A stretch of DNA of 32,000 nucleotides from Telmatocola sphagniphila (GTDB lineage Bacteria; Planctomycetota; Planctomycetia; Gemmatales; Gemmataceae). Under the pieces are notes generated by a model. It made no database searches. It saw only the letters and a program-made list of their open reading frames with translations, and was not told where the DNA came from. The position numbers were made by a program, and so were the translations under genes. The stretch is taken from NCBI RefSeq assembly GCF_018398935.1, contig NZ_CP074694.1, positions 4,830,001-4,862,000 of the forward strand. Reading direction: 5' to 3'. Shown here one piece after another: positions 1-29,810 of the stretch (the first letter of the stretch is position 1; each line of letters opens with the position of its first letter).

Positions 1-86
1 TCGGATCGAATTTGTTTCGGAGTTGGTGAAAAGTCTCTGCGATTTCTCTTTCTCAGGCACTGGCAAATAGCCAGAGCCGCCCGCCC
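1..86. repeat. Structured-repeat copy 0 (cut by window edge): central module plus short-form hairpin arm
   Basis: 1-57 differs from 893-949 at about 3 positions and from 8929-8985 at a few more. It is followed by the hairpin GCACTGGC-AAATA-GCCAGAG and the terminal box CCGCCCGCC (58-86). Confidence 0.85.
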
Positions 87-208
87 GCGACACTCGATCA
101 ACGACAACTGGCGCGTAAATGGTTCAAACTGTTCCCTTTACGAGGCTAAAAATTAGAGGTAACGGCGTTGAGTGCCGCCCTTCGCCTGGGGATTATTTTG
201 CTAATCAA

Positions 209-541
209 TTATCGGGCTTCGTTCGGAATCGCGATCGAAGGGAAGCCAAAATTCTCGAGTTCACTTTCCTGAAAGGCACTGGAGATAGTCAGTTCATTCA
301 CCATGATTCCTGCCAGAATCAGGGCGTGATATATGGCCTGTACGGAATCATCGCCTTGGGCTGTCTTGAGATCATCTTCGCCAGTGTCGCGAGTTCGTAC
401 ATTACAGGCCCAATAGTTTGATTGACCAACGTTAATGTTTACAGGCATCGATATATCGAGATACGCATAACGAGTAGTCGCGAGATCATCGACCCAAGTA
501 AAAGTCCGAGTACAGAGAAGGGATCCGAAATCGGCAGTCAT
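209..541 (-). CDS. hypothetical protein (coding strand and start uncertain)
   Basis: The minus frame is open for 154 codons (209-673) in AT-rich DNA, with an ATG at 541 (MTADFGSLL...). The plus ORF 119-421 occupies the classic antisense shadow frame, so only one of the two is likely real. No recognisable motifs. Confidence 0.3.
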   Translation of the reverse strand: MTADFGSLLCTRTFTWVDDLATTRYAYLDISMPVNINVGQSNYWACNVRTRDTGEDDLKTAQGDDSVQAIYHALILAGIMVNELTISSAFQESELENFGFPSIAIPNEAR

Positions 542-786
542 AAATGACTCCAAGTTAGAAGAGTAATAAGTATTTTTATTTCTATGGAACAAGAACTGAA
601 ACGAGTGTTCAGGCCCCGACAACACCAGTGGACACAATGTAAGCGATTCCACCAACAACCACGATTGTTCCAACTACAAATTCCGGGATCATTCGTTAAA
701 ATATCCGCAATTTCACTCGCAGTCATTACCGCGAGTTCAACAGCCTCTTGACCAACCTCCACTAGACCCCTAACAGTTGATTTTAC

Positions 787-1029
787 GGCGGCTGCACTGG
801 TAACCAAACTAAATCAACGCATGTCATTATTCAGAAACGTTTTGGGTGGCAATTACTATCTGCCCGTGCCGTTTCGATATAACTCCCGCTTTCGGATCGA
901 ATTTGTTTCGGAGTTGGCGAAAAGTCTCCGAGATTTCTCTTTCTCAGTCACTGGCAGATAGCCAGTGCCACCTAAACCGTTACCTCATAATGATTTGCGG
1001 TGACTCTAAAGGGTTACCAGTGCCACCCG
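787..1029. repeat. Composite structured repeat: L-arm (787-870), central module (871-948), R-arm (949-1029)
   Basis: The arms are imperfect inverted repeats. Termini are CGGCGGCTGCACTGG and CCAGTGCCACCCG. R-arm hairpin is CACTGGC-AGATA-GCCAGTG. The central module is near-identical to 1-57 and 8907-8985. Confidence 0.88.
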
Positions 1030-1179
1030 ACGATAGCGCGTCGCGGTCGCGGTTATCACACGGACGGCGTGTCGAGCGCTATTTGCCCGTAGTTGATCGA
1101 AAGAGACGTCAATTGGTTGAAAGCTTTAGTCAGGAAAGCTATACTTGTTCAACGAAAATGGAAGATCGTTGCGATTACG

Positions 1180-1236
1180 CATTGGCAAATAGCCAATACC
1201 ACCCAAACCTTTACCTGACAATGACTTATGGCGATT
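1180..1236 (+). repeat. Solo, degenerate R-oriented module
   Basis: CATTGGC-AAATA-GCCAATACCACCCAAACCTTTACCTGACAATGACTTATGG aligns with the first ~55 nt of the R-arms at 2131 and 8985. The terminal CCAGTGCCACCC box is missing. Confidence 0.6.
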
Positions 1237-1298
1237 TATAGAGGTTGAGTGCGATTTCCTGCTGCGTGCACATAGCACAAACCCAGAATTGGGATCGA

Positions 1299-1904
1299 AT
1301 GCTGGACACTGTTTACGAAAACTACCGGTTCACCAGAATTGCCCGGGAGTTGTTGCGAAACTCTTCTCGCGAATTCACGATCAACGAACTTCAGCAGAGA
1401 GGATATGTTTCGCGCAGAATTGCCCGCAAGATTTATCACTTCCAAAGTTTACACACTCTTTTTCACTCTTGGAACCTGCGTACTTCCGTTGTTAATGGAA
1501 TTACGGAAGCCATTGAGCTATCGACGAATTCAGACAAGCCGGAAACGACGGACGGCGTGGGAGCCTATGTCTCTTGCTTCTACCTTCTTTATGTGAGCAC
1601 CGAAGCCAACATTGATGTCAATATAATCGATTCCATGAACGCGTTCAAACTCCTGGCGAACTACTGCTTCTTCGCGGAGCATGCGAACTCAAGTCTGCTG
1701 ATGGAATTTCTTGCGATACTCCGAAAGAGGCTTTCTTCGATTAGAAAAAGCGATGCTTCCGACTATCTTTCTGCTTGTGAGCTGTGCCAGGATTTTTTGA
1801 AAAACGGTTCCGTTGATTTCTCAAAAACGGAGGATTCCGATCAATCAGAAATCACCTTCGAACTTCGGAAGCATATGAGAAGACTTATGCAAATTCGTTG
1901 CTAA
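1299..1904 (+). CDS. hypothetical protein (about 201 aa from ATG 1299; ORF open from TTG 1245)
   Basis: Long open frame in AT-rich DNA just downstream of a repeat module. No motif I can assign. Confidence 0.6.
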   Translation: MLDTVYENYRFTRIARELLRNSSREFTINELQQRGYVSRRIARKIYHFQSLHTLFHSWNLRTSVVNGITEAIELSTNSDKPETTDGVGAYVSCFYLLYVSTEANIDVNIIDSMNAFKLLANYCFFAEHANSSLLMEFLAILRKRLSSIRKSDASDYLSACELCQDFLKNGSVDFSKTEDSDQSEITFELRKHMRRLMQIRC

Positions 1905-2130
1905 TGGTTTCGGAAACTGGTTTCGTTTGGGATGACTGTCTGATTAGCGATCAGCTTTCAGCGGTCAGCAAATTGAGGAGGACTGGCTTTGTTTCGGGGG
2001 CCTGTTCCCATACGTGTTTCGACATTACTGTACTTCCCGAAAATTGTTGATGTTTCGTGAGATCAGGGTGGCGCTACTTTTAGAATTGGAAATAGGTCAC
2101 ACGTTATGAAAAGTGGATTGTTTCAATACG

Positions 2131-2213
2131 CACTGGCGGATAGCCAGTGAGACCCAAAACATTACGTGACAATGACTTGCGGTAACTCTAAAGGGTTACC
2201 AGTGCCACCCGCC
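2131..2213 (+). repeat. R-oriented module (long form), preceded by a degenerate central-like segment (about 2020-2130)
   Basis: CACTGGC-GGATA-GCCAGTG...GGGTTACCAGTGCCACCCGCC. About 85% similar to 949-1029 by eye. Confidence 0.85.
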
Positions 2214-2391
2214 GGGACTAAGGTCGAAGATTACTTGCGGCGGTTCAATGCTGTCCCAGGGCGAGATATGGCCAAATACAAAGACATGACATTGCACGTT
2301 GTCGATGAATCTGGCTCTGTGCTGCACCATGGTCCGATTACGTAGTAAATCGCTAAGTCGATCTGACACAAAATGCCGAAAGAGGTTGCTT

Positions 2392-2691
2392 ATGAGTCGT
2401 TATGCTTATCTAGTTTGCGAAGAAACCAAGCATGTGATTTGGCTTGGCAAGATTTATAATGCAGAAGCTATTGGTCGCTACTTTCAAATTGGAGCAGGAG
2501 TTCGAAACTCCGAAAATCCTCTTCTGATGAAGGCAGTGATGAAATTTCTAGCCGAACATCTAGGCAAAACTGTAAGCATCCTTCCCGAGGAGGAGTACGA
2601 TTCAATTCTTGATGAGACCTTCATTGATATAGGAGGCGATGGCCCTCCTGGTATTTCACTTGAAGCTTATATAGAGGATTTTGCTGGTTAA
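2392..2691 (+). CDS. hypothetical protein (99 aa from ATG 2392)
   Basis: ATG at 2392 is preceded by AAGAGG 8 nt upstream. The longer ORF from 2299 has an implausible Cys/Arg-rich leader. No recognisable domain. Confidence 0.6.
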   Translation: MSRYAYLVCEETKHVIWLGKIYNAEAIGRYFQIGAGVRNSENPLLMKAVMKFLAEHLGKTVSILPEEEYDSILDETFIDIGGDGPPGISLEAYIEDFAG

Positions 2692-2800
2692 CGAGATCGG
2701 ATGTCGTGTACAGTAACTTTTATTTATGAGCACTAAGTTCGTGCCTCCGAAGATTTGTCTCAAGCGAAGGATGACAAAAAAAACCAAACCGTGTCGATCG

Positions 2801-3062
2801 CGGCGGGTGGCACTGGCAAGCATTCTCAATCAACGCAAGTCATTAACCAGTAACGGCTTGGGTGGCACTGTCTATCTGACAGTGCCATTGTGAGATAAAG
2901 CGTTCTTCTGGCTCGAATTTGTGCCTGAGATGGTGAAAATTTCTGGCACTTTTTCTCCCACGCACTGGCAGTTAGCCAGTGCCTCCCGGAAATTGGACGA
3001 GGATGGAGTCCTACAATTCACTAAGATGAACAAAAATAGCAGGTGACCAGTGTCACTCGCGG
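2801..3062. repeat. Composite structured repeat: L-arm (2801-2888), divergent central (2889-2962), divergent R-arm (2963-3062)
   Basis: Termini are CGGCGGGTGGCACTGG and CCAGTGTCACTCGCGG. Hairpins are GGCACTGTC-TATCT-GACAGTGCC (L) and GCACTGGC-AGTTA-GCCAGTGC (R). Confidence 0.8.
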
Positions 3063-3110
3063 TCGGATGTGGTTAAAATACTGGTGAAAGCCTCATCCAT
3101 CTCATGAGGA

Positions 3111-3758
3111 GTGCCCGTGCCCGAATCCAGTTCGCAGCCGCAAGCCTTGAGCAAATCCCAAGTCGTTCGACTGTTAATCTGCGTGATCGTGACGGTCATC
3201 TTCGGCTACCTCTACTTTCATTGTTTTAAGATCTGGTTCGGACTGAATTCTGGATTCCAGAGCTATGAGGATAACTGGTACAAGCTTCTCTTCTCTGAAG
3301 AACAGCGTGAGGATTTGCGGATCTATTCCCAGGTGATTTTCTGGTTAAGCTGCGTCTACCTTGCGATAGTAACTCTATTGGCAATTCAACTCTACAGAAA
3401 AGGTTACACGAAATACACCTTGATACGTCGGGGTCTCTATGGCAAGGCACATTCCCTAGTCTTCTTGCTTATGTTGTGGTCCTGTTTCCCCGGATTCGGA
3501 TATTACTTGACCGATGAATATTGTTTTAGGGCCTCGATGGATACCGGAGGCAACCCAGAGATTGTTTCGAAGCTGAATCTCAGTTGGCAAAGAACTTCTC
3601 AATTCATGATGGTGCTGTCGAATTTGCAAATTTCGTTTGTCATCATTTTGATCTGGTGGACGTACGAGGTGCTGCTGATCGTACGGCGTAGTGAAAACGC
3701 GTCTCAATCGAAATTCGGCCATGAGATAGTTCCCTCGGACAAAAGTGGTAGAATTTAA
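3111..3758 (+). CDS. hypothetical multi-pass membrane protein (paralog A)
   Basis: 215-aa ORF with several hydrophobic segments. GTG at 3111 or 3117, with GAGGA at 3106-3110 favouring 3117. Clearly paralogous to the IS-split gene downstream (shared IFW.S..YL......LY.KGY and YY..D.(D/E)Y.F blocks). Confidence 0.7.
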   Translation: MPVPESSSQPQALSKSQVVRLLICVIVTVIFGYLYFHCFKIWFGLNSGFQSYEDNWYKLLFSEEQREDLRIYSQVIFWLSCVYLAIVTLLAIQLYRKGYTKYTLIRRGLYGKAHSLVFLLMLWSCFPGFGYYLTDEYCFRASMDTGGNPEIVSKLNLSWQRTSQFMMVLSNLQISFVIILIWWTYEVLLIVRRSENASQSKFGHEIVPSDKSGRI

Positions 3759-4109
3759 AAGGAGATTTTTTCGAGCCAAATGAGGATAGGCCGTGCCCAA
3801 ATCTACAGCTGAATTCACGACAGCCGAACATGTCAAAATCTATCGGATTTACGTTCTGAGTTTGGCATTTGGAGCGCTTCTCATTTTCGAATATTTCCCG
3901 GACTTCTTCAACCAATTCTTTAATTATTTCGATCAAAAAGAATTTTTGCAGAAGGAGCTGATCTTCACGAAACAGCAACAGGCGAATTTAAAGTTGTTTT
4001 CTGATATAGTCTTCTGGTTCAGCTGGATATATCTTTCAGTACTCCTAATTGGCGGAATTCGACTCTACAAAAAAGGTTACTTTAAACTAAATTGGGTGGG
4101 CGTCTTATG

Positions 4110-4117
4110 TATGTATA
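4110..4117. repeat. Left copy of 8-bp target-site duplication TATGTATA
   Basis: Identical octamer at 5867-5874, directly abutting the inferred IS ends. Confidence 0.7.
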
Positions 4118-5866
4118 GTAGTCGACAATTCCCTGATTTTGGTATTTTCTCGATTTTGCGGATCGGTTAGAAATTGGCAATGGATGCCAAGGAGCAACTC
4201 AAGGAAGATGTCCGGACGGGAAAGGTCAGCACCGATTACCTGATCGACTTGATTTTTTCCCTCCAGAACCAATTGCAAGCAGCTCTCCAAGAAATCGCAG
4301 ACCTCAAAAAGCAAATCGCCTCCTCTCCTACGCCCAAGGTCGCTGAACCGTATTCGATAAAGGCGGAAGAGAAGCGCCAAGAAGCCAAGAATCCGAAAAA
4401 AAAGCGTAAGCAGAAGAATGGCAAGAAACGCGGTCGCATCACCTCGGCGGAAAAGATCGCTCAGGCCGAACGCAGCGAAGCGATTTATCCTGAAGGCCTG
4501 GACAAGAACGCATGTCATTTGTCGCACACTCGACCGGTGTGGCGAGTAGAAAACGGTCGAGCGGTGCTGATCGCCTACCAGATTTATCGGGGCCCTAAAA
4601 ACCGCTACGGCCAAATCCCTGGCGTGATAGGCCGCAGCGAATTCGGCATAGAAATCTTCGTCGAGATTGCTTTCCTGGTCTACACCGTCGGGATGTCATT
4701 CGACAAAGTCTGTCTGTCGCTCCAATTCTTTCAGAATATGACTCTGCGAAAAGCGCAGGTCGATGCGTTGCTGCACCGGTTGTCGCGTCATTGGGAAAAG
4801 GAATTCGATACGCTGTGCACGCTGGTGGCCAACTCATTGGTTGTCTGGACCGATGAGACGGGCTGGAGCTTGAACAGCGTGTGGGCGTTCCTCTCGGAGA
4901 AAGCCCGGATCCTGTTGTTCGGAGTCAACAAGGATGCCGACACGCTGGCGAAAATTCTCGACCCGTCCACGTTCAAAGGTCTGGTGGTCAGCGACGATGC
5001 GGCGGTTTACGGGCACTTCACTCATTCGCAAAAGTGCTGGGCGCACCTGTTGCGGAAGGCCATCAAGCTGACGTTGCTCGAACCGGACAATGCCGAATAC
5101 CGCCGCTTCACCGATCGGTTAATCGAAATCTATCGGAAGGCTGTTCGCGTCAAGCGCGACGGACGACTGGGCGAGGCGGGTCGTCTCCAGAAAATTGCCG
5201 AACTGGAGGACGAGATCGTCGTCTTGTGCAGGCCCCTGTGGTCTCAGAATTTGCCGAAGTTGGCCGGAACGCAAGACGATTATCGCAAGCTGAACAACGA
5301 AATCATGACGCTGGTGATGAGGGAGGAGTTATTCGCGTTCGTGACGACCGAGGAGGTGGAGCAACCCAACGGGGTAACTGTGGAAGTCGGGGCGACGAAC
5401 AACGAAAGCGAACGGACGCTGCGGAAGCCTGCAGAAGCCCGCAAGACGGGCCGGACCAGCAAGTCGCTGTTCGGGGCTCGTCGGCAATCGATTTTGACCA
5501 GCGTGCTGGAATCGCTCCGCTTGTACCTGAAACAGTTCACCTTGGCGAACGTAATCGAAGAGATCAACAGTTGGACCGAGGAAGGGATCAGCTGCTTTAC
5601 GAAATTGTTGAATAAGATGAACTTGTCGCTCCCCAAAATCTCTGTCCTCAATGGACTGTTTCCCAAGGTTGAAGCAGAGCCCAAACTCAAACCAAGCGGG
5701 TAGATAAAAGGTGTCGCCTGTCCTCCTCCAATACAACGGTAAAAACCAGACCCAATCAAGCGCTAAGCAACGAGTTTTCACCTGTGCCGATAACCCATCT
5801 GTCGGCAAATTCAAAAGCCGAGTCAACCTCAGCATGCTCCATGCTGCGCACAGATATTGCGGCTAC
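4118..5866 (+). mobile_element. IS66-family insertion sequence, single-ORF type (1749 bp)
   Basis: Flanked by the 8-bp direct repeat TATGTATA. Imperfect terminal inverted repeats GTAGTCGACAAT / GTAGCCGCAAT. Encodes an IS66-type DDE transposase. Excision restores the host ORF. Confidence 0.82.
4174..5703 (+). CDS. IS66 family transposase
   Basis: 509 aa. N-terminal coiled-coil/Lys-rich region, then WTDETGW, VVSDDAAVYG and QKCWAHLLRK blocks typical of DDE_Tnp_IS66. No tnpA/tnpB-like accessory ORFs. Confidence 0.9.
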   Translation: MAMDAKEQLKEDVRTGKVSTDYLIDLIFSLQNQLQAALQEIADLKKQIASSPTPKVAEPYSIKAEEKRQEAKNPKKKRKQKNGKKRGRITSAEKIAQAERSEAIYPEGLDKNACHLSHTRPVWRVENGRAVLIAYQIYRGPKNRYGQIPGVIGRSEFGIEIFVEIAFLVYTVGMSFDKVCLSLQFFQNMTLRKAQVDALLHRLSRHWEKEFDTLCTLVANSLVVWTDETGWSLNSVWAFLSEKARILLFGVNKDADTLAKILDPSTFKGLVVSDDAAVYGHFTHSQKCWAHLLRKAIKLTLLEPDNAEYRRFTDRLIEIYRKAVRVKRDGRLGEAGRLQKIAELEDEIVVLCRPLWSQNLPKLAGTQDDYRKLNNEIMTLVMREELFAFVTTEEVEQPNGVTVEVGATNNESERTLRKPAEARKTGRTSKSLFGARRQSILTSVLESLRLYLKQFTLANVIEEINSWTEEGISCFTKLLNKMNLSLPKISVLNGLFPKVEAEPKLKPSG

Positions 5867-5874
5867 TATGTATA
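5867..5874. repeat. Right copy of 8-bp target-site duplication TATGTATA
   Basis: Identical to 4110-4117. Confidence 0.7.
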
Positions 5875-6200
5875 TCGTTGCATTGCTCATTGTCTATTAC
5901 ATGCAAATATATTATATGCTAAACGACCGCGACTATTTCTTTGCACATGTAGACAACAAATATTATTCCCTGACAATAAGTGAGCGGAATGGCGAATGGG
6001 GCAAAACACTCCAGCAAATTCGAAAAGCCACGGGATGTATTCTCGGTTCCGTTTGGTTAGCGTTCTGGCTGACCTTCCTAGTCTGGCGGTTCCCTCTGAA
6101 GGAAGAAAATCAGACTTTGCCGGAAACCGTGAGTACCGACCTCTAAGGCTGCGAATGCGATGGGGGTATCCATTTCCTCGTCTACTTCAGAATATTCCTT

Positions 6201-7001
6201 CTATTCCTGTGTCCGAATCTGCGATTTTTGATTCGAACTCTGCCAAGCTTGAAATTGTTCCAAGGTTTCTCGTATTCGGCTGTCGAGTCTCGAGACTGCT
6301 ACCGTTACAATCTCCTCGGGAACGCCGCCATAAAATGCTTCAGCGATGCCACCCGCAATACAAGCCATGGTATCGGCATCACCACCCAGCGAAATTGCAT
6401 TGCGGACTGCGTCTTCGTAACTACTCGATTCCAGAAAAGCGATGATCGACTCCGGAACAGAACCCGCGCAAGAAACATCGAAAATATACCCCGCTCGAAT
6501 CTCTCTCAAGGATCTCGAGAGCTCATAATGAAATGTCGTTTCGATGTACTTCTTTATCTCCGGCTTCGCATGCCCCGTTCGTGCTAAAAATATCGCGGCG
6601 GCCGTGGCCTGGGCACCGACAATCCCTTTGGGATGATTATGCGTTACCTCGGCGGACTCTCTGGCCTTTTCCAAGACCGAATCAAGATCCGAAAAAGCCC
6701 AGGCCACGGGACTGACCCGCATGGCCGAGCCGTTCGCCCAACTGTTGTATGGCTCGCGATTTTTCTGCAGAGCCCAGGAAATAAACATACCGCCATAACC
6801 CGCGTTGGGATATCGCAAGAACCAGCTTTGCAAAGTGTTGATTAAATCACCACCGGTCATCAACCAGTCTGCTACCGCCACGGTTAAAACGGTATCGTCA
6901 GTAAAGCAGGAATGCGGTACGAATAAATCGAACTTCTTGAACTTCGTTCCTTTGCCTTCATGGACGGAACCGATAATATCCCCGACGATTGAACCCAGCA
7001 T
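6201..7001 (-). CDS. ADP-ribosylglycohydrolase family protein
   Basis: 266 aa. GDIIGS..E, CFTDDTVLT and GGDADTMACIAGGIAEAFYG are hallmark ARH/DraG-family metal-site motifs. GGAGG lies 7 nt upstream of the ATG. Confidence 0.9.
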   Translation of the reverse strand: MLGSIVGDIIGSVHEGKGTKFKKFDLFVPHSCFTDDTVLTVAVADWLMTGGDLINTLQSWFLRYPNAGYGGMFISWALQKNREPYNSWANGSAMRVSPVAWAFSDLDSVLEKARESAEVTHNHPKGIVGAQATAAAIFLARTGHAKPEIKKYIETTFHYELSRSLREIRAGYIFDVSCAGSVPESIIAFLESSSYEDAVRNAISLGGDADTMACIAGGIAEAFYGGVPEEIVTVAVSRLDSRIRETLEQFQAWQSSNQKSQIRTQE

Positions 7002-7112
7002 CTCGAATCCTCCCCGTTGGGAAAGGACAACACCAGTGACTAATCTCGGCTTGATTTTACTCGCGAAAGGAACCTGTTAGGTACCTCCGGCCGCCTATCG
7101 AATAATCGAAAG

Positions 7113-7461
7113 CGACGGGTGACACTGGCACCCCATCTCAATAAACGCAAGTCCCTGTACAATCTAGACTTGGGTGGCACTGTCTATCTGACAGTGCCAT
7201 TGAGAAATCCTCGATTTTCAATAACAAAGGACCTCTTTTCAACTCAAAAGAAATTCACGCCCTGGCAGTTCGATTCCTCTCCAATCCCCAGGAAGACCAT
7301 GAACAACTGGCAAATCTTGATCTCGCTTTTCAGAGTCTCCTGGGAGTAAAACTTAGCCGAGGACCACTTCCAATCGGCGGGTGGCGGATAGCCAGCTGGA
7401 CCCAAAACATTACCTGCCAATGACTTACGGTGATTCTAAAAGGGTACCAGTGCCAACCGCC
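7113..7461. repeat. Composite structured repeat: L-arm (7113-7199), ~180-nt spacer, long-form R-arm (7378-7461)
   Basis: The L-arm is nearly identical to 8617-8704, and the spacer aligns with 8705-8880. Termini are CGACGGGTGACACTGG and CCAGTGCCAACCGCCG. Confidence 0.88.
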
Positions 7462-7539
7462 GTCGATTCGAAATATAATTTGATAAGTCGGAATAAGGCC
7501 TTACGATCTGTGTCCAAGGCAACAAACTAGGTAAGTGTT

Positions 7540-8358
7540 ATGATCACAGAGACTTTGTTCTTCAACAGGCAACAAAATACTGGGTGGCATCGTGCCTTTC
7601 TGTCTGAATTTCTTCAAGCTCACGAGATGCGAATTCTCTCTAGAATCGAGTCCACAATTTCTGAAGAGATATTCGAGGAATCGTACCTCGTAGGGTTGCT
7701 CGAAGAGGCAACTATCATCAAGCCTCTCCGACTTAATTTCGACGATATTGAACGTGAAAATCCGAGACTGGAAGCATTTCTAGCATCGCCAAATTCGACA
7801 GGATTTAATTTTTATCCAGGCCACCTGCCAGCGCCTCAACGATACGTAGTCCGATGCAAAATTAAGTATGAAGGCACGGCTGATTTATTGTTGCTCTCCC
7901 CTAGAAATGGCACCTCAGTCTTGCCTGTAGGTCGAATCGATGGGAATAAGATTCTATTCGATCTTCCACTACCAGTGGATATGTCAAAAAAGAAACAGTT
8001 TGAACATGATCTAAATCAGCGTAAAGAGGCTTTTCGCAAATACTCTGAATTCGCTAACGAAGATCTCTTCATTTCGCAAAGAGGTCTTAGCCAGAGAATC
8101 AAGGTCTGTTATGAGTCGAAATTCACAGAGTTGCATGCAGTATATGGCTTAATAAATTCCCCAGGACTAAAATTGTCAGAGGTTAGGCAGCCATCCCAAC
8201 CAAATGGATCCCAACCGTTTACAAAGAATGCTTTTGAGCCTCAACCCTCACAAGTTATCGTGAATAATATCACTGTGATTTACAATACTATTGAAAAGTT
8301 TTTTAAAATTGATCAGACAAACAACACCTCGGGGGGAGATGTGAATAATGCATATTAA
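7540..8358 (+). CDS. hypothetical protein (272 aa), probably the 5' part of a frameshifted longer gene
   Basis: Long ORF with ATG start. It ends 8 codons after the peptide repeat DQTNNTSGGDVNN, which recurs in the next ORF in a different frame. Confidence 0.65.
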   Translation: MITETLFFNRQQNTGWHRAFLSEFLQAHEMRILSRIESTISEEIFEESYLVGLLEEATIIKPLRLNFDDIERENPRLEAFLASPNSTGFNFYPGHLPAPQRYVVRCKIKYEGTADLLLLSPRNGTSVLPVGRIDGNKILFDLPLPVDMSKKKQFEHDLNQRKEAFRKYSEFANEDLFISQRGLSQRIKVCYESKFTELHAVYGLINSPGLKLSEVRQPSQPNGSQPFTKNAFEPQPSQVIVNNITVIYNTIEKFFKIDQTNNTSGGDVNNAY

Positions 8359-8530
8359 CCAAACAAACAATACCTCGGGAGGAGATGTGAACAATAACTT
8401 CTCTTTCGAAGGAAATTCTGTCCAAAGCCAAGGCGATCATAGCAAGATCGAGATCCAAAAAGAGGAAGGGCTTGTCGAGAGTATCAAGAAAATATTTCGC
8501 TCGATTAAGGCATTCTTTGGTAAGAAGTAG
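8348..8530 (+). CDS. hypothetical protein (60 aa), or the 3' part of the preceding gene after a +1 shift
   Basis: Starts at ATG 8348 and overlaps the upstream stop by 11 nt. Begins with INQTNNTSGGDVNN (second copy of the repeat) and ends in the cationic amphipathic tail SIKKIFRSIKAFFGKK. Confidence 0.45.
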   Translation: MHINQTNNTSGGDVNNNFSFEGNSVQSQGDHSKIEIQKEEGLVESIKKIFRSIKAFFGKK

Positions 8531-8616
8531 TCTCGAAATCTTCGAGCTTGGATATCAAAAATACAAACTATTTCGCGATACGTTTTTTCTTATCTTCTCC
8601 AGGCTGGCTAGCATCA

Positions 8617-9068
8617 CCGCGGGGTGACACTGGCATCCCATCTCAATAAACGCAAGTCCCTGTACAATCTAGACTTGGGTGGCACTGTCTATCTGACAGT
8701 GCCATTTAGAAATCATCGATTTTCAACAACAAATCACCCTATTTCAACCCAGAAGGAATTCACGCCCCTGAAAGTCGTACCCACGCCAATCTCCAGGAAG
8801 ACCATGAAAACTGGCAAATCTTGATCTCGCTCTTCCGGACTTTGCTGTGTGTAAAACTTGGCCGAGGACCACTTCCAATCGTTGGGGTAGCAGATAGCCA
8901 CCCGCCGTTTCGATATAACTCTCGCTTTCGGATCGAATTTGTTTCGAAGTTGGCGAAAACTCTCTCTGATTTCTCTTTCTCAGGCACGGGCAGATAGCCA
9001 GTGCCATCCAAAACATTACCTGACAATGACTTACGGAGATTGTTTCGGTGCATCAGTGCCTTTGCCAC
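8617..9068. repeat. Composite structured repeat: L-arm (8617-8704), spacer, short-form arm (8881-8906), central module (8907-8984), degenerate R-arm (8985-9068)
   Basis: 8617-8880 aligns with 7113-7377. 8907-8985 aligns with 871-949. The R-arm is CACGGGC-AGATA-GCCAGTGCCATCCAAAACATTACCTGACAATGACTTACGG. Confidence 0.85.
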
Positions 9069-9898
9069 ACAACTCACTTTGCCAGTCACTCCTCTCTCGA
9101 TTACTCTACAGCGTGCAGGGAATCGGTCCATTTCAGGATTACAAAAGCCTGCACGCGAGCTTCGTCAGTTCGATCCTCGCAGTGATCCTACCAGCAGTTC
9201 AGAACTTTCCAGAAAGGGAGGTCATCGATTGGGTTCAAAATCGGTTTACGACGAATCACCCCAAAACAGGCGTATTTCCCAAGAAATAACCTAAGGTCAT
9301 CAAAATCGCGTTTTCCACTATGTGAAAAATGATGATCTGATGACCTCTCTAGGGAAATCCCGGAAAGAAAGGCCCTTCTTGACCCCAAAATGTCCGGAAT
9401 TTCTGAGATATCTCGTCAAAATCGAAGTGTCGTATGCACTCTAGATCACTGAGGAATCCACACGAAGCTTTTCTTGGTCTCCGGGCTCGCCGTGAGTGTT
9501 CCAACCGCCCCAAATTGCAACAGTTCCTGGAGTTCCCAATCGCGGTGAATTCCAGCGGTCGTCCCTCGGCAACGAAAAAGCGGAACCGGTCCTCAAGCTC
9601 CAACGGAATTGATCGATCTGATGCAACGCCGTCCTCCCGAGTGAATTTCAGTGATCACAAATAGCCCTATCGTCGCTGACTGGCATCCAGGAAAGATCAC
9701 TCTCTTCCGGTACGAACGGCCTCGGAAACTTCGGCCCGTTAGCACTCTCGAAGGATTTTCTTTATCGCCCTCAACCTTGAGCCCCGGCTTAAAATCACTC
9801 GCCGGGCACACTCCGGCGCCTAAAATCACTTACAGGCAGTAGCGAGAGCGGATTCGTTATCCCATCGAGATTTTCAATTCCGATACTTAGGCTTTTCC

Positions 9899-11869
9899 AT
9901 GCTGGTAGGTCAGACCATCGGTGAAGGTGACAAGTCGCTGTACATTGAGAAAGAACTCGGCAGCGGGGCCATGGGCTCCGTTTTCCGGGCTCGCTTTCTC
10001 AAGGACAACACGCTGACGGCCCTGAAAGTCATCGCCTTCGGTCTGGCCGACAACGAAACCGCCCGGGCCCGCTTCGACCGCGAGGCCAAAATCCTCAAAC
10101 AGCTCAAGCACCCTAACATCACCCGCTACTACGGCAGCGGCCACATTCGCAAAACGCCGTTTTTCATGATGGAATACGTCGAAGGGGAATCGCTCGATCA
10201 CCTGCTCGAGCGGCGCGGCAAACTCCCCTGGGAAGACGTGGTCATCTTCGGCAAGCAGCTGGCGGCCGCTCTCGAGCACGCGCACGAAAAAGGGATCATC
10301 CATCGCGATCTGAAGCCCTCGAACATCATGCTCACCAAGGGGGGCACGGTCAAGCTGACCGACTTCGGGATCGCCAAGGATGTCGATCTGACTGCGCTCA
10401 CCGGAGCCAACAACACCATCGGCACCGCCGCTTACATGTCGCCCGAACAATGCCGGGGAGAACGCAACCTCGGCCCCAAATCGGATATCTATTCGTCCGG
10501 GGTGGTTTTCTACGAACTGCTCACCGGCCGAAAGCCCTTCGTCCGGGAAACCTCCATCGATCTGTTCATGGCGCATGTGAACGATCCTTTCGAGCGTCCC
10601 AGTCGGCTCGTTCCCAACCTGCCGATGTGGCTGGATACGCTCGTCTGCCAGATGCTGGAAAAGAAGCCGGAATTCCGACCGCTGGACGCCGCGACGGTGG
10701 GCCGGGCGCTCCAGGAAATCGAAGATAAAGTCGCTTCGCATAAGAGTGTGGGGGCGGAAGTGGCCAACGCCCGGGTGATCGACCGAATTCAGATGACTTC
10801 GCCGCCGGATGAATCGGATCGGGAAGCCACCCGGGTCATTCGATCTTCTTCCAAAAAGAAGAAGGTCAAAAAGAAAACCATCCCCTTTTATCGCAAGCTC
10901 TGGTTTGCGCTAACTCTCATTGGCCTGTTCGTGATCGGAGCCGGGATCGGCCTCTACCTGGTAACGCGGCCTGGCGATCCCAAGATCGCTTTCAACCAGG
11001 CGATGGAAGAAAAGGACGAGGCCACCAAGGAGCAATTGCTCAGCGCTTATCTCAAACGGCAATCCGGTAACAAGGATGCCGACTGGCAGCGCGCCAATGA
11101 TGAGTTGTTCGGCCTGAAGGCCAAGAAGATCGATCAGGCGATGTGGAATCGCGTTCGGGCGAAACGGCTGAACCCGGAAGAGGAATACGACAAGCAGGCG
11201 TATGCGCTGGTTATGCAGGGCTACAAACTCGAAGCGGAGGGTAACACCAACGGCGCGCTCGAACAATGGATCGATCTGGAGAAGAACTGGGTGAAACAGG
11301 AGAACGAAGAGCTAGCTCTCTGGGGCTGGATCGGCCGCCGTCATAAGCAATTGATAAGCGAGGCCGACGGTCTGGAAAAGAGGATGCTCGCCACTCTGCT
11401 GAGGGCCCGGGTCGATGAGGAGGAAGCGACACTCGAAGGCGACGACACCAAGCGAACCTACGAAGCCCTGCGACTCGAACTTCTTGGCGATTTACGCGCC
11501 GAGCTGAGCGAAGATAAAAAAGGGCCCGTCGGCGATCTGGCGGGGGCGAAGCAGGCCTGGAAATCCCTGCGTGACGATCGGGAAAAGGATAAGCCGATCG
11601 ATCAGCGCGTTTACTTGATTCTGGCCGCCCGTCATTTCCGCGATCTCGATCCGCAAAAAGCTTCCGAAGCGACCCCGGAACAGCGCGAAGAGATGGTCCG
11701 CGGCTTGCTGAAGTGGGCCCTCTCCGTTCAGAAATCGGAGAATCTCATCGTACTTCGGGATATGCGCAATACACTTCGGGATATTCGCGACCTCTACAAA
11801 AATGCCCCCTCCCCGCTCGATAAAATCGCTATCGAAGCGGATAGCGAACTGCGTAAACTCAAAAAATAA
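9899..11869 (+). CDS. Serine/threonine protein kinase with TM segment and helical-repeat C-terminal region
   Basis: 656 aa. GSGAMGSVF glycine loop, ALKVI lysine, HRDLKPSNIML, DFGIAK, SPEQ. Hydrophobic segment LWFALTLIGLFVIGAGIGLYLV after a Lys-rich linker. Confidence 0.92.
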   Translation: MLVGQTIGEGDKSLYIEKELGSGAMGSVFRARFLKDNTLTALKVIAFGLADNETARARFDREAKILKQLKHPNITRYYGSGHIRKTPFFMMEYVEGESLDHLLERRGKLPWEDVVIFGKQLAAALEHAHEKGIIHRDLKPSNIMLTKGGTVKLTDFGIAKDVDLTALTGANNTIGTAAYMSPEQCRGERNLGPKSDIYSSGVVFYELLTGRKPFVRETSIDLFMAHVNDPFERPSRLVPNLPMWLDTLVCQMLEKKPEFRPLDAATVGRALQEIEDKVASHKSVGAEVANARVIDRIQMTSPPDESDREATRVIRSSSKKKKVKKKTIPFYRKLWFALTLIGLFVIGAGIGLYLVTRPGDPKIAFNQAMEEKDEATKEQLLSAYLKRQSGNKDADWQRANDELFGLKAKKIDQAMWNRVRAKRLNPEEEYDKQAYALVMQGYKLEAEGNTNGALEQWIDLEKNWVKQENEELALWGWIGRRHKQLISEADGLEKRMLATLLRARVDEEEATLEGDDTKRTYEALRLELLGDLRAELSEDKKGPVGDLAGAKQAWKSLRDDREKDKPIDQRVYLILAARHFRDLDPQKASEATPEQREEMVRGLLKWALSVQKSENLIVLRDMRNTLRDIRDLYKNAPSPLDKIAIEADSELRKLKK

Positions 11870-11886
11870 TAGCTGCCCTTTGAACC

Positions 11887-11922
11887 GCCGGTTACGATAA
11901 ATTTCGGACCGGCGAATTTTTC
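11887..11922 (+). terminator. Rho-independent terminator candidate after the kinase gene
   Basis: CGCCGGT (11887-11893) pairs with ACCGGCG (11909-11915) and is followed by AATTTTT. Confidence 0.55.
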
Positions 11923-11940
11923 CCGGACGGACGCTCTACC

Positions 11941-13239
11941 ATGTCATCTACCTATATTCCTCGCCCGAAAAGTCAGGCCGCTTTCGAACGCGCTCAGAAA
12001 GTGATTCCCGGTGGAGTCAACAGTCCCGCTCGAGCTTTCGGTGGAGTGGGTGGAACCCCCTTGTTCATCGCGCGAGCCGAAGGACCGTATCTCTACGATC
12101 TCGACGGCCATCGCTACCTGGATTACATCGGCTCCTGGGGGCCCATGATTCTGGGGCACTGCCATCCCAAGGTGGTGGCCGCCGTGCTGGAGGCGGTGCA
12201 CAACGGCAGCAGCTACGGCGCCCCATGCGAAAAAGAATCGGAACTGGCCGAGCTGATCTGCAGTCTGATGCCGAGCATGGAAATGGTTCGGATGGTCAGT
12301 TCCGGCACCGAAGCAGCCATGAGCGCGGTACGGCTGGCCCGCGGCTACACCGGCCGCAATCTGATTGTGAAATTCGCCGGCTGTTACCACGGCCACGTCG
12401 ATGCCCTGCTCGTCTCGGCCGGCTCCAGCGCCTTGACGCTCGGCGTGCCAAGCAGCCCCGGAGTACCGGCCGGCTGCACGCAGGATACGGTTGTGCTGCG
12501 CTACAACGACTGTCAGGCGCTGCGCGATCTCTTTGCCACTCGCGGGAACCTGATCGCCGGGGTAATGCTGGAACCCTTTGTCGGCAACATGGGACTCGTC
12601 AGCCCTTCCAAAGAGTTCCTCGACGAACTCTGGAAACTGACACGCCGTCATGGTAGCCTGCTGATATTCGATGAAGTAATGACCGGCTTCCGGCTGGCAC
12701 CAGGCGGTGCCCAGGAACTGCTGGGCATCAAGCCGGACGTCACCGTCCTGGGCAAAATTATCGGCGGCGGTTACCCGGTCGGCGCCTATGGGGGCCGGGC
12801 GGAAGTGATGAAGAAGATCATGCCGGCCGGGCCGGTTTTCCAGGCGGGCACGCTTTCGGGAAATCCGGTGGCGATGGCGGCCGGATTAGCCACTTTAAAA
12901 GAGTTGCGGGATAATCCACCCTACGCTCAACTCGATCAGCTATCAAAACGGTTGTGCGACGGACTCACCCAATTCGCGACAGCGAGGAATATTCCTCATC
13001 AGATTAATCGCATCGGCAGTATGTGGACGCTGTTTTTCACAGGTACGCCGGTGGTCGATCTGGATACCGCCAAGACCAGCAATACGGAAAAATTCAGCCG
13101 GTTCTTCTGGTCGATGATGGACCGCGGAGTTTACCTTCCCTGCAGCCAGTTCGAAGCCGCCTTTACCTCCGCGGCCCATACGCCGGAGATGATCGATACT
13201 ACTCTGCAAGCGGCCCGCGAAGCCCTGAACAAGCTGTAG
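11941..13239 (+). CDS. hemL: Glutamate-1-semialdehyde 2,1-aminomutase
   Basis: 432 aa. KVIPGGVNSPARAF, GSWGPMILGH and the PLP-lysine region VLGKIIGGG give an end-to-end HemL-like pattern. Confidence 0.96.
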   Translation: MSSTYIPRPKSQAAFERAQKVIPGGVNSPARAFGGVGGTPLFIARAEGPYLYDLDGHRYLDYIGSWGPMILGHCHPKVVAAVLEAVHNGSSYGAPCEKESELAELICSLMPSMEMVRMVSSGTEAAMSAVRLARGYTGRNLIVKFAGCYHGHVDALLVSAGSSALTLGVPSSPGVPAGCTQDTVVLRYNDCQALRDLFATRGNLIAGVMLEPFVGNMGLVSPSKEFLDELWKLTRRHGSLLIFDEVMTGFRLAPGGAQELLGIKPDVTVLGKIIGGGYPVGAYGGRAEVMKKIMPAGPVFQAGTLSGNPVAMAAGLATLKELRDNPPYAQLDQLSKRLCDGLTQFATARNIPHQINRIGSMWTLFFTGTPVVDLDTAKTSNTEKFSRFFWSMMDRGVYLPCSQFEAAFTSAAHTPEMIDTTLQAAREALNKL

Positions 13240-27998: not shown

Positions 27999-28385
27999 AT
28001 GAGGTTGAATACTCAGGAAGTGAAAAACTTGCAGCTTCGCCTGCAAAAAATGGTCTCCCATAACCGTCAACTTCAGTCGGAACTCGATCGGGAACTGACA
28101 CACGAAACGGTGGATAGCTCGCGCGAAACAACGGTCGATCCTCTTTCGAGTGAGATCAACGATCTGCGTGGCCACCAGGGCGATGATGAAGTGACATTGG
28201 GATCGCTGCGCATTGAACAGGACATGGATCGGGAAATTCAATCCGCACTCGATCGAATCGAACAGGGAACATACGGAATTTGCGAGCACTGCAGTAAGCC
28301 GATCAGCAAACGCCGTTTAAACGCTCTGCCTTACGCCCGACGCTGTCTGCACTGCGAAGCGGCGGAAAATTTCGTACGAGCTTAA
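27999..28385 (+). CDS. DksA/TraR family C4-type zinc-finger protein
   Basis: 128 aa. Coiled-coil N-terminus, then CEHCSKPISKRRLNALPYARRCLHCEAA. Confidence 0.85.
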   Translation: MRLNTQEVKNLQLRLQKMVSHNRQLQSELDRELTHETVDSSRETTVDPLSSEINDLRGHQGDDEVTLGSLRIEQDMDREIQSALDRIEQGTYGICEHCSKPISKRRLNALPYARRCLHCEAAENFVRA

Positions 28386-28441: not shown

Positions 28442-28616
28442 AGTGATAAATAGTTATCCACTCTGTCTAGCCACTTGCCGCGCTTTATCGTCGAAAAATG
28501 CATTTCCCCAAGCAATTGAGAATTATTTGAACAGGTACGAAGCTTGCAATTGCGAGTGCGAAGCCCGTGCACCTGGATACCGGGATTTTAATAACTCCAG
28601 ATCGATAGGATCCTTT

Positions 28617-29810
28617 ATGGATATTTTCAAAAACTCCGATCTTAAGGAACTGATTGCCGATCGGAATGCTCCCTGCGTTTCGATCTATGCCCCCACTCAG
28701 AAAGGCGGCAAAGGCCTCGACCTCAGTCACTGGAAGCACCTGCTCGAAAACGCCGAGCGGCAACTGACTGCCTGGAATTGCCCGGCCGAACAAAGGGATA
28801 GCCTTCTGGACCCGGCTTATTCCCTTTTGAAAGACGAGGAATTCTGGAAGTATACTTCGGAGGGATTGGCTCTATTTATCGCTCCCGAGTTCCTGCGTGC
28901 GTATCGCCTACCGTTTCCTTTCGCCGAAAAAACGCAAGTCTCCCACTCGTTCTATATCAAGCCGCTGATTCCCTGGGTGCAGGACGATGGCCGCTTTTAC
29001 ATTCTGGCTTTGAGTCAGAATCACGTTCGACTTCTGGAAGCCACGCGACATGCCGTGCACGAATTGAAGCCGGGGGCTCCGACCAGCAAGGCGGAGGCGA
29101 ATCAGAATCACGAACATGAAAATCTGCTGAACCTCCACACCCATCACGATGCGGCGGGCAAAGCCATGCACGCGGTCTTCCACAGCCAGGGCGGCGACGA
29201 CACTCGAAAGAAAGAACTGCTGCACTTCTTCCAGAAGATCGATCATTCGATTTGCGGCTATCTCGGGAATTCCCAAGCGCCTTTGATCGTCGCTACAGTC
29301 GAATACATGTTGCCGATCTATCGGGAAGCCAGCAAATATCCCCATCTGCTCAACCAGGGTATAGCGGGAAATCCCGCTCATTGGAATGCAACTGAATTAC
29401 AATCTCGTGCGCTTCCGTTAGTGGAACCGATCTTTGAAGCGCGGACAACAAAAGCTGTAGCGAAGTTTCACGAATGGGCCGGCTCCGGCTTGACGACCCC
29501 GGAACTGGACGTGATCCTCCCGGCTGCTAAGCAAGGCAACCTGCAATCGTTACTCCTGGTCCCTGATCAGGACATCTGGGGTAATTACGATGCCCAGACC
29601 CAAACCGTGGAAGTGCACCAGACACCGGAACCGGGCGATGCCGAGCTCGGCAACCTCGCGGCCATCTACACGCTGCAGCACAACCACGCCGTGCATAGCG
29701 TGGCTCCTCAAAAGTTCTTCGACGGTTCGCCGGTCGTGGGAGTTTATTTCTACGCCGGCTTGAACAATGCCCAGTCGCGAGCGAAACGCGTCGAGAAAAA
29801 TTCGGTCTAA
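28617..29810 (+). CDS. hypothetical protein (397 aa); N-terminus reminiscent of bacterial eRF1-like (baeRF) proteins, unverified
   Basis: ATG 28617 has AGGA 8 nt upstream. The longer ORF from 28443 starts inside the terminator region. The N-terminal pattern DLKELIADRNAPCVSIYAPTQKGG resembles one I recall from baeRF families. This is memory only, not a search result. Confidence 0.7.
   Translation: MDIFKNSDLKELIADRNAPCVSIYAPTQKGGKGLDLSHWKHLLENAERQLTAWNCPAEQRDSLLDPAYSLLKDEEFWKYTSEGLALFIAPEFLRAYRLPFPFAEKTQVSHSFYIKPLIPWVQDDGRFYILALSQNHVRLLEATRHAVHELKPGAPTSKAEANQNHEHENLLNLHTHHDAAGKAMHAVFHSQGGDDTRKKELLHFFQKIDHSICGYLGNSQAPLIVATVEYMLPIYREASKYPHLLNQGIAGNPAHWNATELQSRALPLVEPIFEARTTKAVAKFHEWAGSGLTTPELDVILPAAKQGNLQSLLLVPDQDIWGNYDAQTQTVEVHQTPEPGDAELGNLAAIYTLQHNHAVHSVAPQKFFDGSPVVGVYFYAGLNNAQSRAKRVEKNSV

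Follow-up and report, generated by a model that had tools for sequence, protein, structure and literature searches.

Structured non-coding repeats between the genes of an AT-rich island in Telmatocola sphagniphila look more like REP- and TIR-type elements than integron sites

The closest relatives in kind of the repeats described here are the bacterial interspersed mosaic elements (BIMEs) of Gilson, the REPINs of Bertels and Rainey, and the "TIR repeats" associated with RAYT or TIRYT transposases. The repeats lie in a 32,000-nucleotide stretch of the planctomycete Telmatocola sphagniphila (assembly GCF_018398935.1, contig NZ_CP074694.1, positions 4,830,001 to 4,862,000; this whole stretch is the window, and all positions refer to it), where modules with a conserved hairpin are found between the genes of an island at positions 1-9069. 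The island has a GC content of 0.43-0.52 compared with 0.51-0.61 in the remaining window, which agrees with the AT-rich block of the original prediction, a short account made from the sequence alone. Our favored reading, to which we assign a probability of about 0.5, is that this is a family of structured extragenic repeats, non-coding and specific to the lineage, either of the repetitive extragenic palindromic (REP)/BIME/REPIN kind or of the "terminal inverted repeat (TIR)" kind that is similar to miniature inverted-repeat transposable elements (MITEs), and that it is moved in trans by an enzyme that recognizes the hairpin. The repeat appears to be previously undescribed, and it looks more like a selfish repeat of the REP/MITE type than like an integron.

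REP dimers and BIMEs have a heterodimeric anatomy with a conserved spacer, and many Y1 transposase genes with flanking repeats have been reported together with clustered TIR-repeat families, including in the planctomycete R. baltica (PMC3733652). In common with the REP, BIME and REPIN elements and the TIR repeats, the island repeats are extragenic and non-coding, keep their stem-loop by compensatory change, have two subtypes inverted around conserved spacers, occur both as singletons and in clusters, and have no target duplication; some TIR-repeat families are likewise clustered at few loci, and such families are reported in Planctomycetes (PMC3733652). The differences are that the island module has a long tail and a second half-site and is 85-90 nt in length, whereas a REP is 20-40 nt, that the island hairpin has a GGGT/ACCC flank and no GTAG or CGTC (the TIRYT motif GGGGWSAS fits one copy only), and that there are genes between successive composites of the island.

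The original prediction had likened the block to an integron cassette array or a cluster of attC sites lacking integron integrases (CALIN), and this likeness holds for the layout: the repeats alternate with mostly unique, gene-sized inserts and occupy gaps of small, mostly unrelated and often orphan genes, the sites are conserved in structure but divergent in sequence, and the AT-skewed block lies beside core genes. It does not hold for the core or the fold, as the island has neither R''/R' cores nor an end-to-end hairpin with extrahelical bases. Its single modules alternate in orientation, though its composites and spacers are mostly co-oriented, its composites are 245-452 bp, and it includes multi-gene segments without internal sites. 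The lack of RYYYAAC/GTTRRRY cores had been recognized from the outset, and a scan of both strands of 1-9200 gave 0 RYYYAAC...GTTRRRY pairs 50-150 nt apart, with the relaxed AAC...GTT pairs no commoner there than in the core region. No integrase had been seen either, and indeed there is no IntI or tyrosine recombinase in the 32-kb window. The repeats had been described as two to four times longer than attC sites, which was mistaken: at 85-90 nt, the basic unit falls within the lengths of attC sites. The evidence does not support placing the repeats in the attC/CALIN class; planctomycete attC sites have their own profile (PMC8352920).

A MITE, which was one of the alternatives offered in that prediction, fits the evidence better than an integron. 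The DDE-type MITEs, such as Correia and ERIC, are also short, non-coding intergenic foldbacks, and they have in common with the island repeats the 16-nt perfect-consensus termini in 85-nt arms and possible outward promoters. However, the island repeats have no target duplication, they contain a selected hairpin inside each arm and have distinct left and right arm subtypes, no parent insertion sequence (IS) is known for them, and the ends of the IS66-family element in the island are unrelated to theirs. With their structured 85-nt arms and no target duplication they are nearer to REP/BIME/REPIN elements or TIR repeats. The pdif modules of Acinetobacter are bounded by sites of alternating orientation, like the island modules. 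The rAID-1 arrays of Bacteroidales share with the island small accessory genes, skewed GC and repetitive intergenic sequences (10.1101/471110). These two systems differ from the island in that a Xer-type recombinase, 28-bp XerC/D sites or both define them, and the window has none of these: no Xer gene is encoded there, and in place of the 28-bp dif/pdif layout (11-6-11) there is only a 9-5-9 palindrome with covarying arms.

Detection and anatomy of the module

The repeat family is real and far beyond chance, and it was borne out at the positions where it had been predicted. A repeat search of the window found families D1-D7 and inverted pairs I1-I7; the hairpin core CACTGGCAGATAGCCAGTGCCACC has 8 matches at up to 3 mismatches where 0 are expected, and the 3' motif GGTTACCAGTGCCACCCG has 6 where 0.02 are expected. 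A covariance model (CM) built from nine copies and run unfiltered over all 32 kb recovered nine full and three partial modules, all inside 56-9069 (Table 1), and no convincing module in the 22.9 kb of 9070-32000. The orientation of the modules alternates, with 7 on the plus strand and 4 on the minus strand. They are all intergenic, and the distances between the R- and L-oriented modules and the neighboring open reading frames (ORFs) had been quoted correctly. The claim that repeats occupy every gap was too broad, since only 6 of the 9 gaps hold one, with none at 3759-3792, at 6147-6200 or in the flanks of the IS.

Each module is composed of a hairpin and a tail of about 60 nt (alignments A1 and A2), with the consensus GGCACTGGC-AGATA-GCCAGTGCC ACCCAAAAC...AATGACTTGCG...GGTTA CCAGTGCCACCC GCCG. 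The tail ends with a second copy of the arm motif CCAGTGCCACCC followed by GCCG, and this copy is a direct repeat of the 12-nt right arm of the hairpin, located about 63 nt downstream of it. The 16-nt terminal inverted repeats of the original prediction are also real (CGGCGGGTGGCACTGG/CCAGTGCCACCCGCCG). The hairpin has a 9-bp stem in a 9-5-9 layout, in which the loop bases ATAG are invariant and the flank ACCCA (TGGGT on the opposite strand) is conserved, and the GTAG or CGTC tag at the foot of the stem is absent from the modules. This stem is under structural selection: double-sided changes are found at 6 of the 9 pairs, 87.7% of cells are paired, the covariation score is reached by 0 of 500 shuffles, and slid controls fall to 25-41% paired. 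When single modules are folded, only the 23-nt terminal hairpin forms, with z of -1.6 to -2.2 for most of them, the consensus fold keeps that helix alone, and none folds end to end. The L and R modules are separable as subtypes, with a diagnostic column that reads GCGTT in 4 of 4 minus-strand copies and xxGGx in 5 of 5 full plus-strand copies, and the L copies group together in the identity matrix.

The repeats are non-coding. There is no conserved reading frame among the copies, with the open frame, the stops and the 1-nt indels or frameshifts varying from one copy to another, and the ORFs of the repeats have no match in Pfam, NCBIfam or PADLOC. A concatenated six-frame translation of all the repeats found no similar protein among 5.8 billion. 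Searches of Rfam, at the gathering threshold and at a permissive E-value, returned nothing relevant, and there were no tRNAs.

Composites, spacers and ends

The "R" and "L" modules, which had been taken for independent sites, are instead the two arms of composites in which an L arm, a spacer and an R arm follow one another with the hairpins facing inward, forming a foldback element. Composites are located at 786-1032 (B1), 2798-3062 (B2), 7110-7462 (A) and 8617-9068 (A+B), and one more straddles the left edge of the window; the composite A+B consists of an A-type to which a B spacer and an R arm are attached. Spacer B is 77 nt and is present in four copies, all in a single orientation, and spacer A measures about 180 nt and occurs twice in full, at 88% identity. 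The spacers are 75-91% conserved whereas the arms are 52-84% conserved, with the exception of one near-identical pair of L arms (96%), and composites and spacers are co-oriented in 6 of 7 instances. The composites fold as long single-stranded DNA hairpins, with z = -8.45 (786-1032) and z = -4.23. Because partner arms are no more alike (57-68%) than non-partners (up to 78%), and the complementarity between partners is no greater, we regard the long fold as a by-product of homology and not as a selected feature.

Several copies are rearranged at the element's own repeats. In the short modules 56-86 and 8885-8906, the interval between the two direct repeats inside the module has been cleanly deleted, which in the case of 56-86 leaves the hairpin directly joined to the terminal GCCCG, and the module 2126-2216 adjoins, on the side of its hairpin, the left half of spacer A in inverted orientation (2033-2128), giving two deletions and one spacer inversion beside a hairpin. 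A comparison can be made with invertons, in that inverted arms flank the spacers and one paralogous copy carries spacer A inverted; by our own reasoning, the contig breakpoints do not fit a population of mixed orientation at 868-967. For the solo module 1175-1265, the interval 1033-1179 shows neither an L arm nor a spacer, and a decayed L arm and spacer upstream of it was considered and found to be unsupported by local alignment of that interval.

Homology among the copies stops within about 2 nt at ...CCCGCCG (alignments A1 and A2). Target duplications around the module copies, which would be the sign of a MITE, were looked for with a boundary slack of ±4 nt, and no flanking direct repeat was above chance matches of 3-4 nt, even at the copy with a base-fixed terminus (7110). 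The same isolate is covered by fragmented Logan contigs (runs SRR14506984 and SRR14506983), and this terminus comes from the short-read ones, which are 100% identical to the window and which end 29-30 nt inside exact repeats, a rule that is borne out at 2886 (in-window repeat from 2857) and at 5837 (IS end at 5866). By this rule, the contig ends at 897 and 938 imply an outside copy identical to 868-967, containing spacer B and the R hairpin, and the end of contig L001 at 7139 is 29 nt inside an exact repeat that is shared by no in-window copy, with a terminus at exactly 7110. Since the rule applies to 897, 938 and 7139, there would be outside copies with different flanks and the same L-arm terminus at 7110, and the contig ends imply that the family has further members outside the window, some of them recent, that share a base-precise terminus. 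The array was expected to continue past the left edge, and contig L002 of the same genome reaches 78 nt beyond position 1 and shows a further L-type module there.

In genomes other than this one, strict and relaxed patterns for the module gave 0 matches in GTDB species genomes, JGI metagenomes and viral contigs; in the window, the relaxed pattern recognizes all nine copies. Nor did blastn of the composites retrieve anything from plasmids or phages, and the module model found no copy in the planctomycete loci that were fetched. As far as can be seen from these searches, the repeat family appears to be lineage-specific.

Cargo and neighboring genes

The ORFs between the repeats had been held to be mutually unrelated and unassignable, which is true of several orphans, but the cargo also includes an ADP-ribosylglycohydrolase, an IS66 transposase, two paralogous membrane proteins in tandem for which there is no family assignment, and proteins with weak DUF6968 and PDC-S54 matches (Table 1). 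Two of the cargo genes (209-541 and 6201-7001) are on the minus strand. The 272-aa orphan at 7540-8358 has as its sole database relative itself, from the same isolate, and two 42-nt tandem repeats are found at 8308-8395, at the 3' end of its ORF. In the public gene call for Logan contig L087 (window 939-1904), an in-frame TAG at 1239-1241 is crossed to give a 321-aa product that fuses repeat sequence to ORF 1299-1904, and this product probably arose artificially, from a gene model with a recoded stop applied to a short contig. Contigs L086 and L088 (SRR14506983) differ from the window by single-base indels only (2 gap openings, 0 substitutions), which suggests that SRR14506983, a second run of the same organism, is a noisier and possibly long-read data set.

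The IS66-family element is a separate recent insertion that is outside the repeat family. Its ends read GTAGTCG...CGGCTAC, its flanks (4110-4117 and 5867-5874) carry an 8-bp target duplication without mismatch, TATGTATA, and when it is removed in silico the interrupted gene regains an ORF of 198 aa. Its collapse into a single Logan contig of exactly 1749 nt shows that the genome has more than one copy. As a candidate parent of the repeats it was rejected, because its ends and its 8-bp duplication are unrelated to them.

Table 1. Positions of the repeat modules, spacers and cargo genes of the island.
Feature	Positions	Strand	Evidence and remarks
Spacer B, right part (the rest is left of the window)	1-55	+	91%/88% identical to 892-947/8928-8982 (D3); alignment A3; contig L002 shows the missing left part
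Short R module	56-86	+	CM partial match 56-82, 16.7 bits; alignment A1
Cargo, 110 aa, weak DUF6968 match	209-541	-	Pfam 1.1e-05, below curated cut-off; gene call on Logan L002
L-type module, left arm of composite B1	784-873	-	CM 82.5 bits
Spacer B, invariant TCGAATTTGT and TGGYGAAAA motifs	871-947	+	Alignment A3
R-type module, right arm of composite B1	944-1034	+	CM 98 bits
Solo R-type module	1175-1265	+	CM 80.7 bits; ends 36 nt before ORF 1299-1904
Cargo ORF, 201 aa, without family	1299-1904	+	Family searches
Inverted copy of left part of spacer A	2033-2128	-	Local alignment z = 8.8, 0/200 shuffles reach the score; colinear through module 2126-2216
R-type module, upstream of ORF 2392-2691	2126-2216	+	CM 99.3 bits
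Cargo ORF, 99 aa, without family	2392-2691	+	Gene calls on Logan L087 and L088; no family match
L-type module, left arm of composite B2	2799-2889	-	CM 100.9 bits
Diverged spacer B	2890-2960	+	D6 75%; alignment A3; internal stem kept via changed bases (by eye)
Diverged R module with 17-nt insertion	2961-3064	+	CM partial matches 2961-2987 and 3033-3064; alignment A1
Cargo, membrane-protein-like ORF, 215 aa	3111-3758	+	Paralogue of next gene, BLASTP 2e-12, 25% identity
Paralogous membrane-type ORF split by IS	3793-6146	+	198 aa in frame once 3793-4117 and 5875-6146 are joined
IS66-family element, 1749 bp	4118-5866	+	Pfam, NCBIfam; transposase 4180-5703
ADP-ribosylglycohydrolase	6201-7001	-	Pfam 1.6e-35; PHROG 2.8e-51; weak Tri1-family match
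L-type module, left arm of composite A	7111-7201	-	CM 95 bits
Spacer A	7200-7378	+	D2 88%; promoter-like TTGAAA-17-GAAAAT on minus strand, outward through L arm
R-type module, right arm of composite A, several compensatory stem changes	7374-7464	+	CM 91.2 bits; pair counts
Orphan ORF, 272 aa (7540-8358), and 60-aa ORF	7540-8530	+	Weak PADLOC PDC-S54 match (272-aa ORF), 6.7e-11
L-type module, left arm of composite A+B	8616-8706	-	CM 92.7 bits
Spacer A, second copy	8705-8884	+	D2, D7, D12
Collapsed R module, homologous to 7374-7464	8885-8906	+	D7 alignment; weak CM match 8885-8903; sequence reading
Spacer B, fourth copy	8907-8982	+	Alignment A3
R-type module, degenerate 3' end, last repeat before core genes	8980-9069	+	CM 87.5 bits

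The 22.9 kb to the right of the island contain core genes, which include a Ser/Thr kinase, an aminotransferase, DAHP synthase, acetate kinase and phosphoketolase. The best named relatives of the kinase are in Tuwongella, Zavarzinella and Gemmataceae metagenome-assembled genomes (MAGs), at about 46% identity, and the closest GTDB representative of the aminotransferase, with 74% amino-acid identity, is in a Fimbriiglobus MAG, so that the organism belongs to a thinly sampled part of the Gemmataceae. In Tuwongella immobilis (locus L084, 10001-13287), the Ser/Thr kinase likewise neighbors the class-III aminotransferase, as it does here (window 9899-13239), and one database homologue is a kinase-aminotransferase fusion (P0108). 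A synteny search for close relatives gave one 99%-identical metagenome fragment of 1.1 kb, which is too short for comparison. Also in the core region, a bacterial archaeo-eukaryotic release-factor-like domain (baeRF family 3, 1.3e-40) is encoded by the gene at 28443-29810, which adjoins that of a DksA/TraR zinc-finger protein at 27999-28385. The stretch 9069-9369 has no in-window copy and no family-matching ORF; an imperfect palindrome is present at 9294-9346, between the last module and the kinase gene, and a 35-kb Logan contig begins at 9340, which implies that another exact repeat, common to a second genomic locus, ends near 9369.

Weighing the origins of the repeats

The REP/MITE-like reading is favored because the compensatory hairpin, the two arm subtypes, the interchangeable spacers, the singletons and collapsed forms, the precise ends and the extragenic location match what is described for REP-type elements and TIR repeats (PMC3733652). 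On this account, the hairpin would form on single-stranded DNA and would be recognized by an enzyme encoded elsewhere, most likely a HUH/Y1 transposase of the RAYT or TIRYT type, and this enzyme would cut and rejoin at the precise ends with no duplication of the target. Copies would survive only between genes and would accumulate in a dispensable AT-rich island, where their internal repeats and palindromic hairpins could become substrates for local deletions and inversions, and some arms may secondarily provide a neighboring gene with an outward promoter and a 5' hairpin. Several observations weigh against it. The 32-kb window encodes no Y1 transposase or other candidate enzyme, and the module is two to three times the classical REP length and has no GTAG/CGTC tag. 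The copies are mostly old (52-88% identical), and the only sign of current mobility is the set of identical outside copies that the contig ends suggest. Clustering is extreme, with all copies in one island and 12 of 12 in 28% of the window (p of about 3e-7 by our own arithmetic, which assumes independent and uniform placement), whereas dispersal, assessed here for the window only, is a hallmark of REP and MITE families. Finally, the four B spacers and both full A spacers are all in one orientation, which is array-like and not random.

The repeats might instead be primarily a regulatory unit: a promoter followed by a 5'-terminal hairpin leader, a terminator or insulator working in both directions, or both of these. 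The unit would travel with accessory genes or be recruited by them, while recombination between copies would shuffle those genes. The PeSL promoter/stem-loop cassettes of T4-type phages are comparable to such a unit. We consider this unlikely, even though a same-sense module is located 36-253 nt upstream of six genes or operons (541(-), 1299, 2392, 3111, 7001(-) and 7540), and sigma-70-like hexamers that point outward are found just inside the hairpin in four arms (1117-1145, with TTGAAA-17-TATACT; about 2084-2112, by eye; 7242-7214; and 8747-8719). The GTGCCA of the 3' motif is also a -35-like hexamer at 3050 and 7450, and the covariation of the stem would suit an RNA structure as well as a DNA structure. 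Yet a promoter/terminator consensus scan found promoter-like sites not to be enriched (13 against 10.4 expected from shuffles), planctomycete promoter rules are poorly known, and two L arms (2799-2889 and 8616-8706) face the 3' ends of convergent genes. The sharp ends and the identical termini in different flanks would demand mobility in any case, which makes a regulatory role largely complementary to the REP/MITE-like reading; such a role would also be compatible with a capture mechanism. An origin from pieces of a duplicated protein-coding gene, whether as pseudogene remains or as orphan toxin/immunity modules, is scarcely credible: frames are open across individual copies, as in ORFs 846-1241, 7119-7349 and 8760-9131, but the open frame is not the same in each copy, the stops and 1-nt indels are scattered, and conservation tracks the hairpin and not the codons. 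With this scatter and the null six-frame protein search, a coding or pseudogene origin is effectively refuted, and we reject it.

Recombination sites provide another account of the array, in which the composite or the hairpin is the site of an unseen site-specific recombinase that would insert, excise or reorder the gene segments between repeats, in the manner of an integron, a pdif module or rAID-1. In its favor, the copies are clustered, the AT-rich block has repeats alternating with mostly unique gene-sized inserts of 0.6-4 kb, the repeat-to-unique junctions are sharp with no target duplications, 6 of the 7 spacers are co-oriented, the hairpin is structurally selected as in attC, and the end-points of the two deletions and the one inversion are at repeated motifs. 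Some of the cargo has the flavor of immunity or defense, with the weak Tri1-family match of the ADP-ribosylglycohydrolase and the weak PDC-S54 match, and there is a non-integron precedent in the rAID-1 arrays, which have repetitive intergenic sequences and a XerD-like recombinase (10.1101/471110). Nevertheless, we find this account quite unlikely, as RYYYAAC/GTTRRRY cores are absent, the modules do not fold end to end, and partner arms have no co-adaptation. The hairpin loops and stems differ between the arms of one composite, which would make strand exchange harder for a tyrosine or serine recombinase, one "cassette" consists of three genes and an IS with no internal site, two gaps have no sites, and the 32 kb encode no recombinase save the IS66 transposase. 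In its strongest form, the island would be the visible end of a new, integron-independent planctomycete array for gene capture, with two-arm foldback sites and an unseen hairpin-specific recombinase to the left of the window that would insert, excise and invert gene segments precisely at the ...CCCGCCG junctions or at the hairpins, and this form we judge improbable. Alternatively, each R arm, cargo and following L arm could be a unit, either a non-autonomous passenger transposon ("mobile insertion cassette") or a relic of tandem integration, with the 85-nt arms as its terminal inverted repeats. There are four segments between inverted arms (56..873, 2126..2889, 2961..7201 and 7374..8706), with cargo in either orientation. 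This is disfavored because the intervening spacers are themselves conserved, with A and B conserved above the arms, unlike random target DNA. The arms of the same cargo are just 52-74% alike, an L arm is missing from the segment that opens with the solo module 1175-1265 (cargo 1299-1904), where the next repeat is another R module, and target duplications are absent, so that units of this kind are very improbable.

If the REP/MITE-like reading is true, the family would be one more lineage-specific extragenic palindromic repeat and not a conceptual advance, though it would help to annotate Gemmataceae genomes and would mark an accessory island that evolves fast, and the repeats would explain why short-read assemblies shatter at the island. 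If instead the repeats were at a single locus and linked to a recombinase, they would represent a second cassette-capture system beside integrons, structurally different from them, in a phylum for which little is known of the biology of mobile elements. On either reading two features stand out, namely the signs of deletions and an inversion at the element's own motifs, and an unusual anatomy that combines a hairpin and a distal half-site in each module with two arm subtypes and interchangeable spacers.

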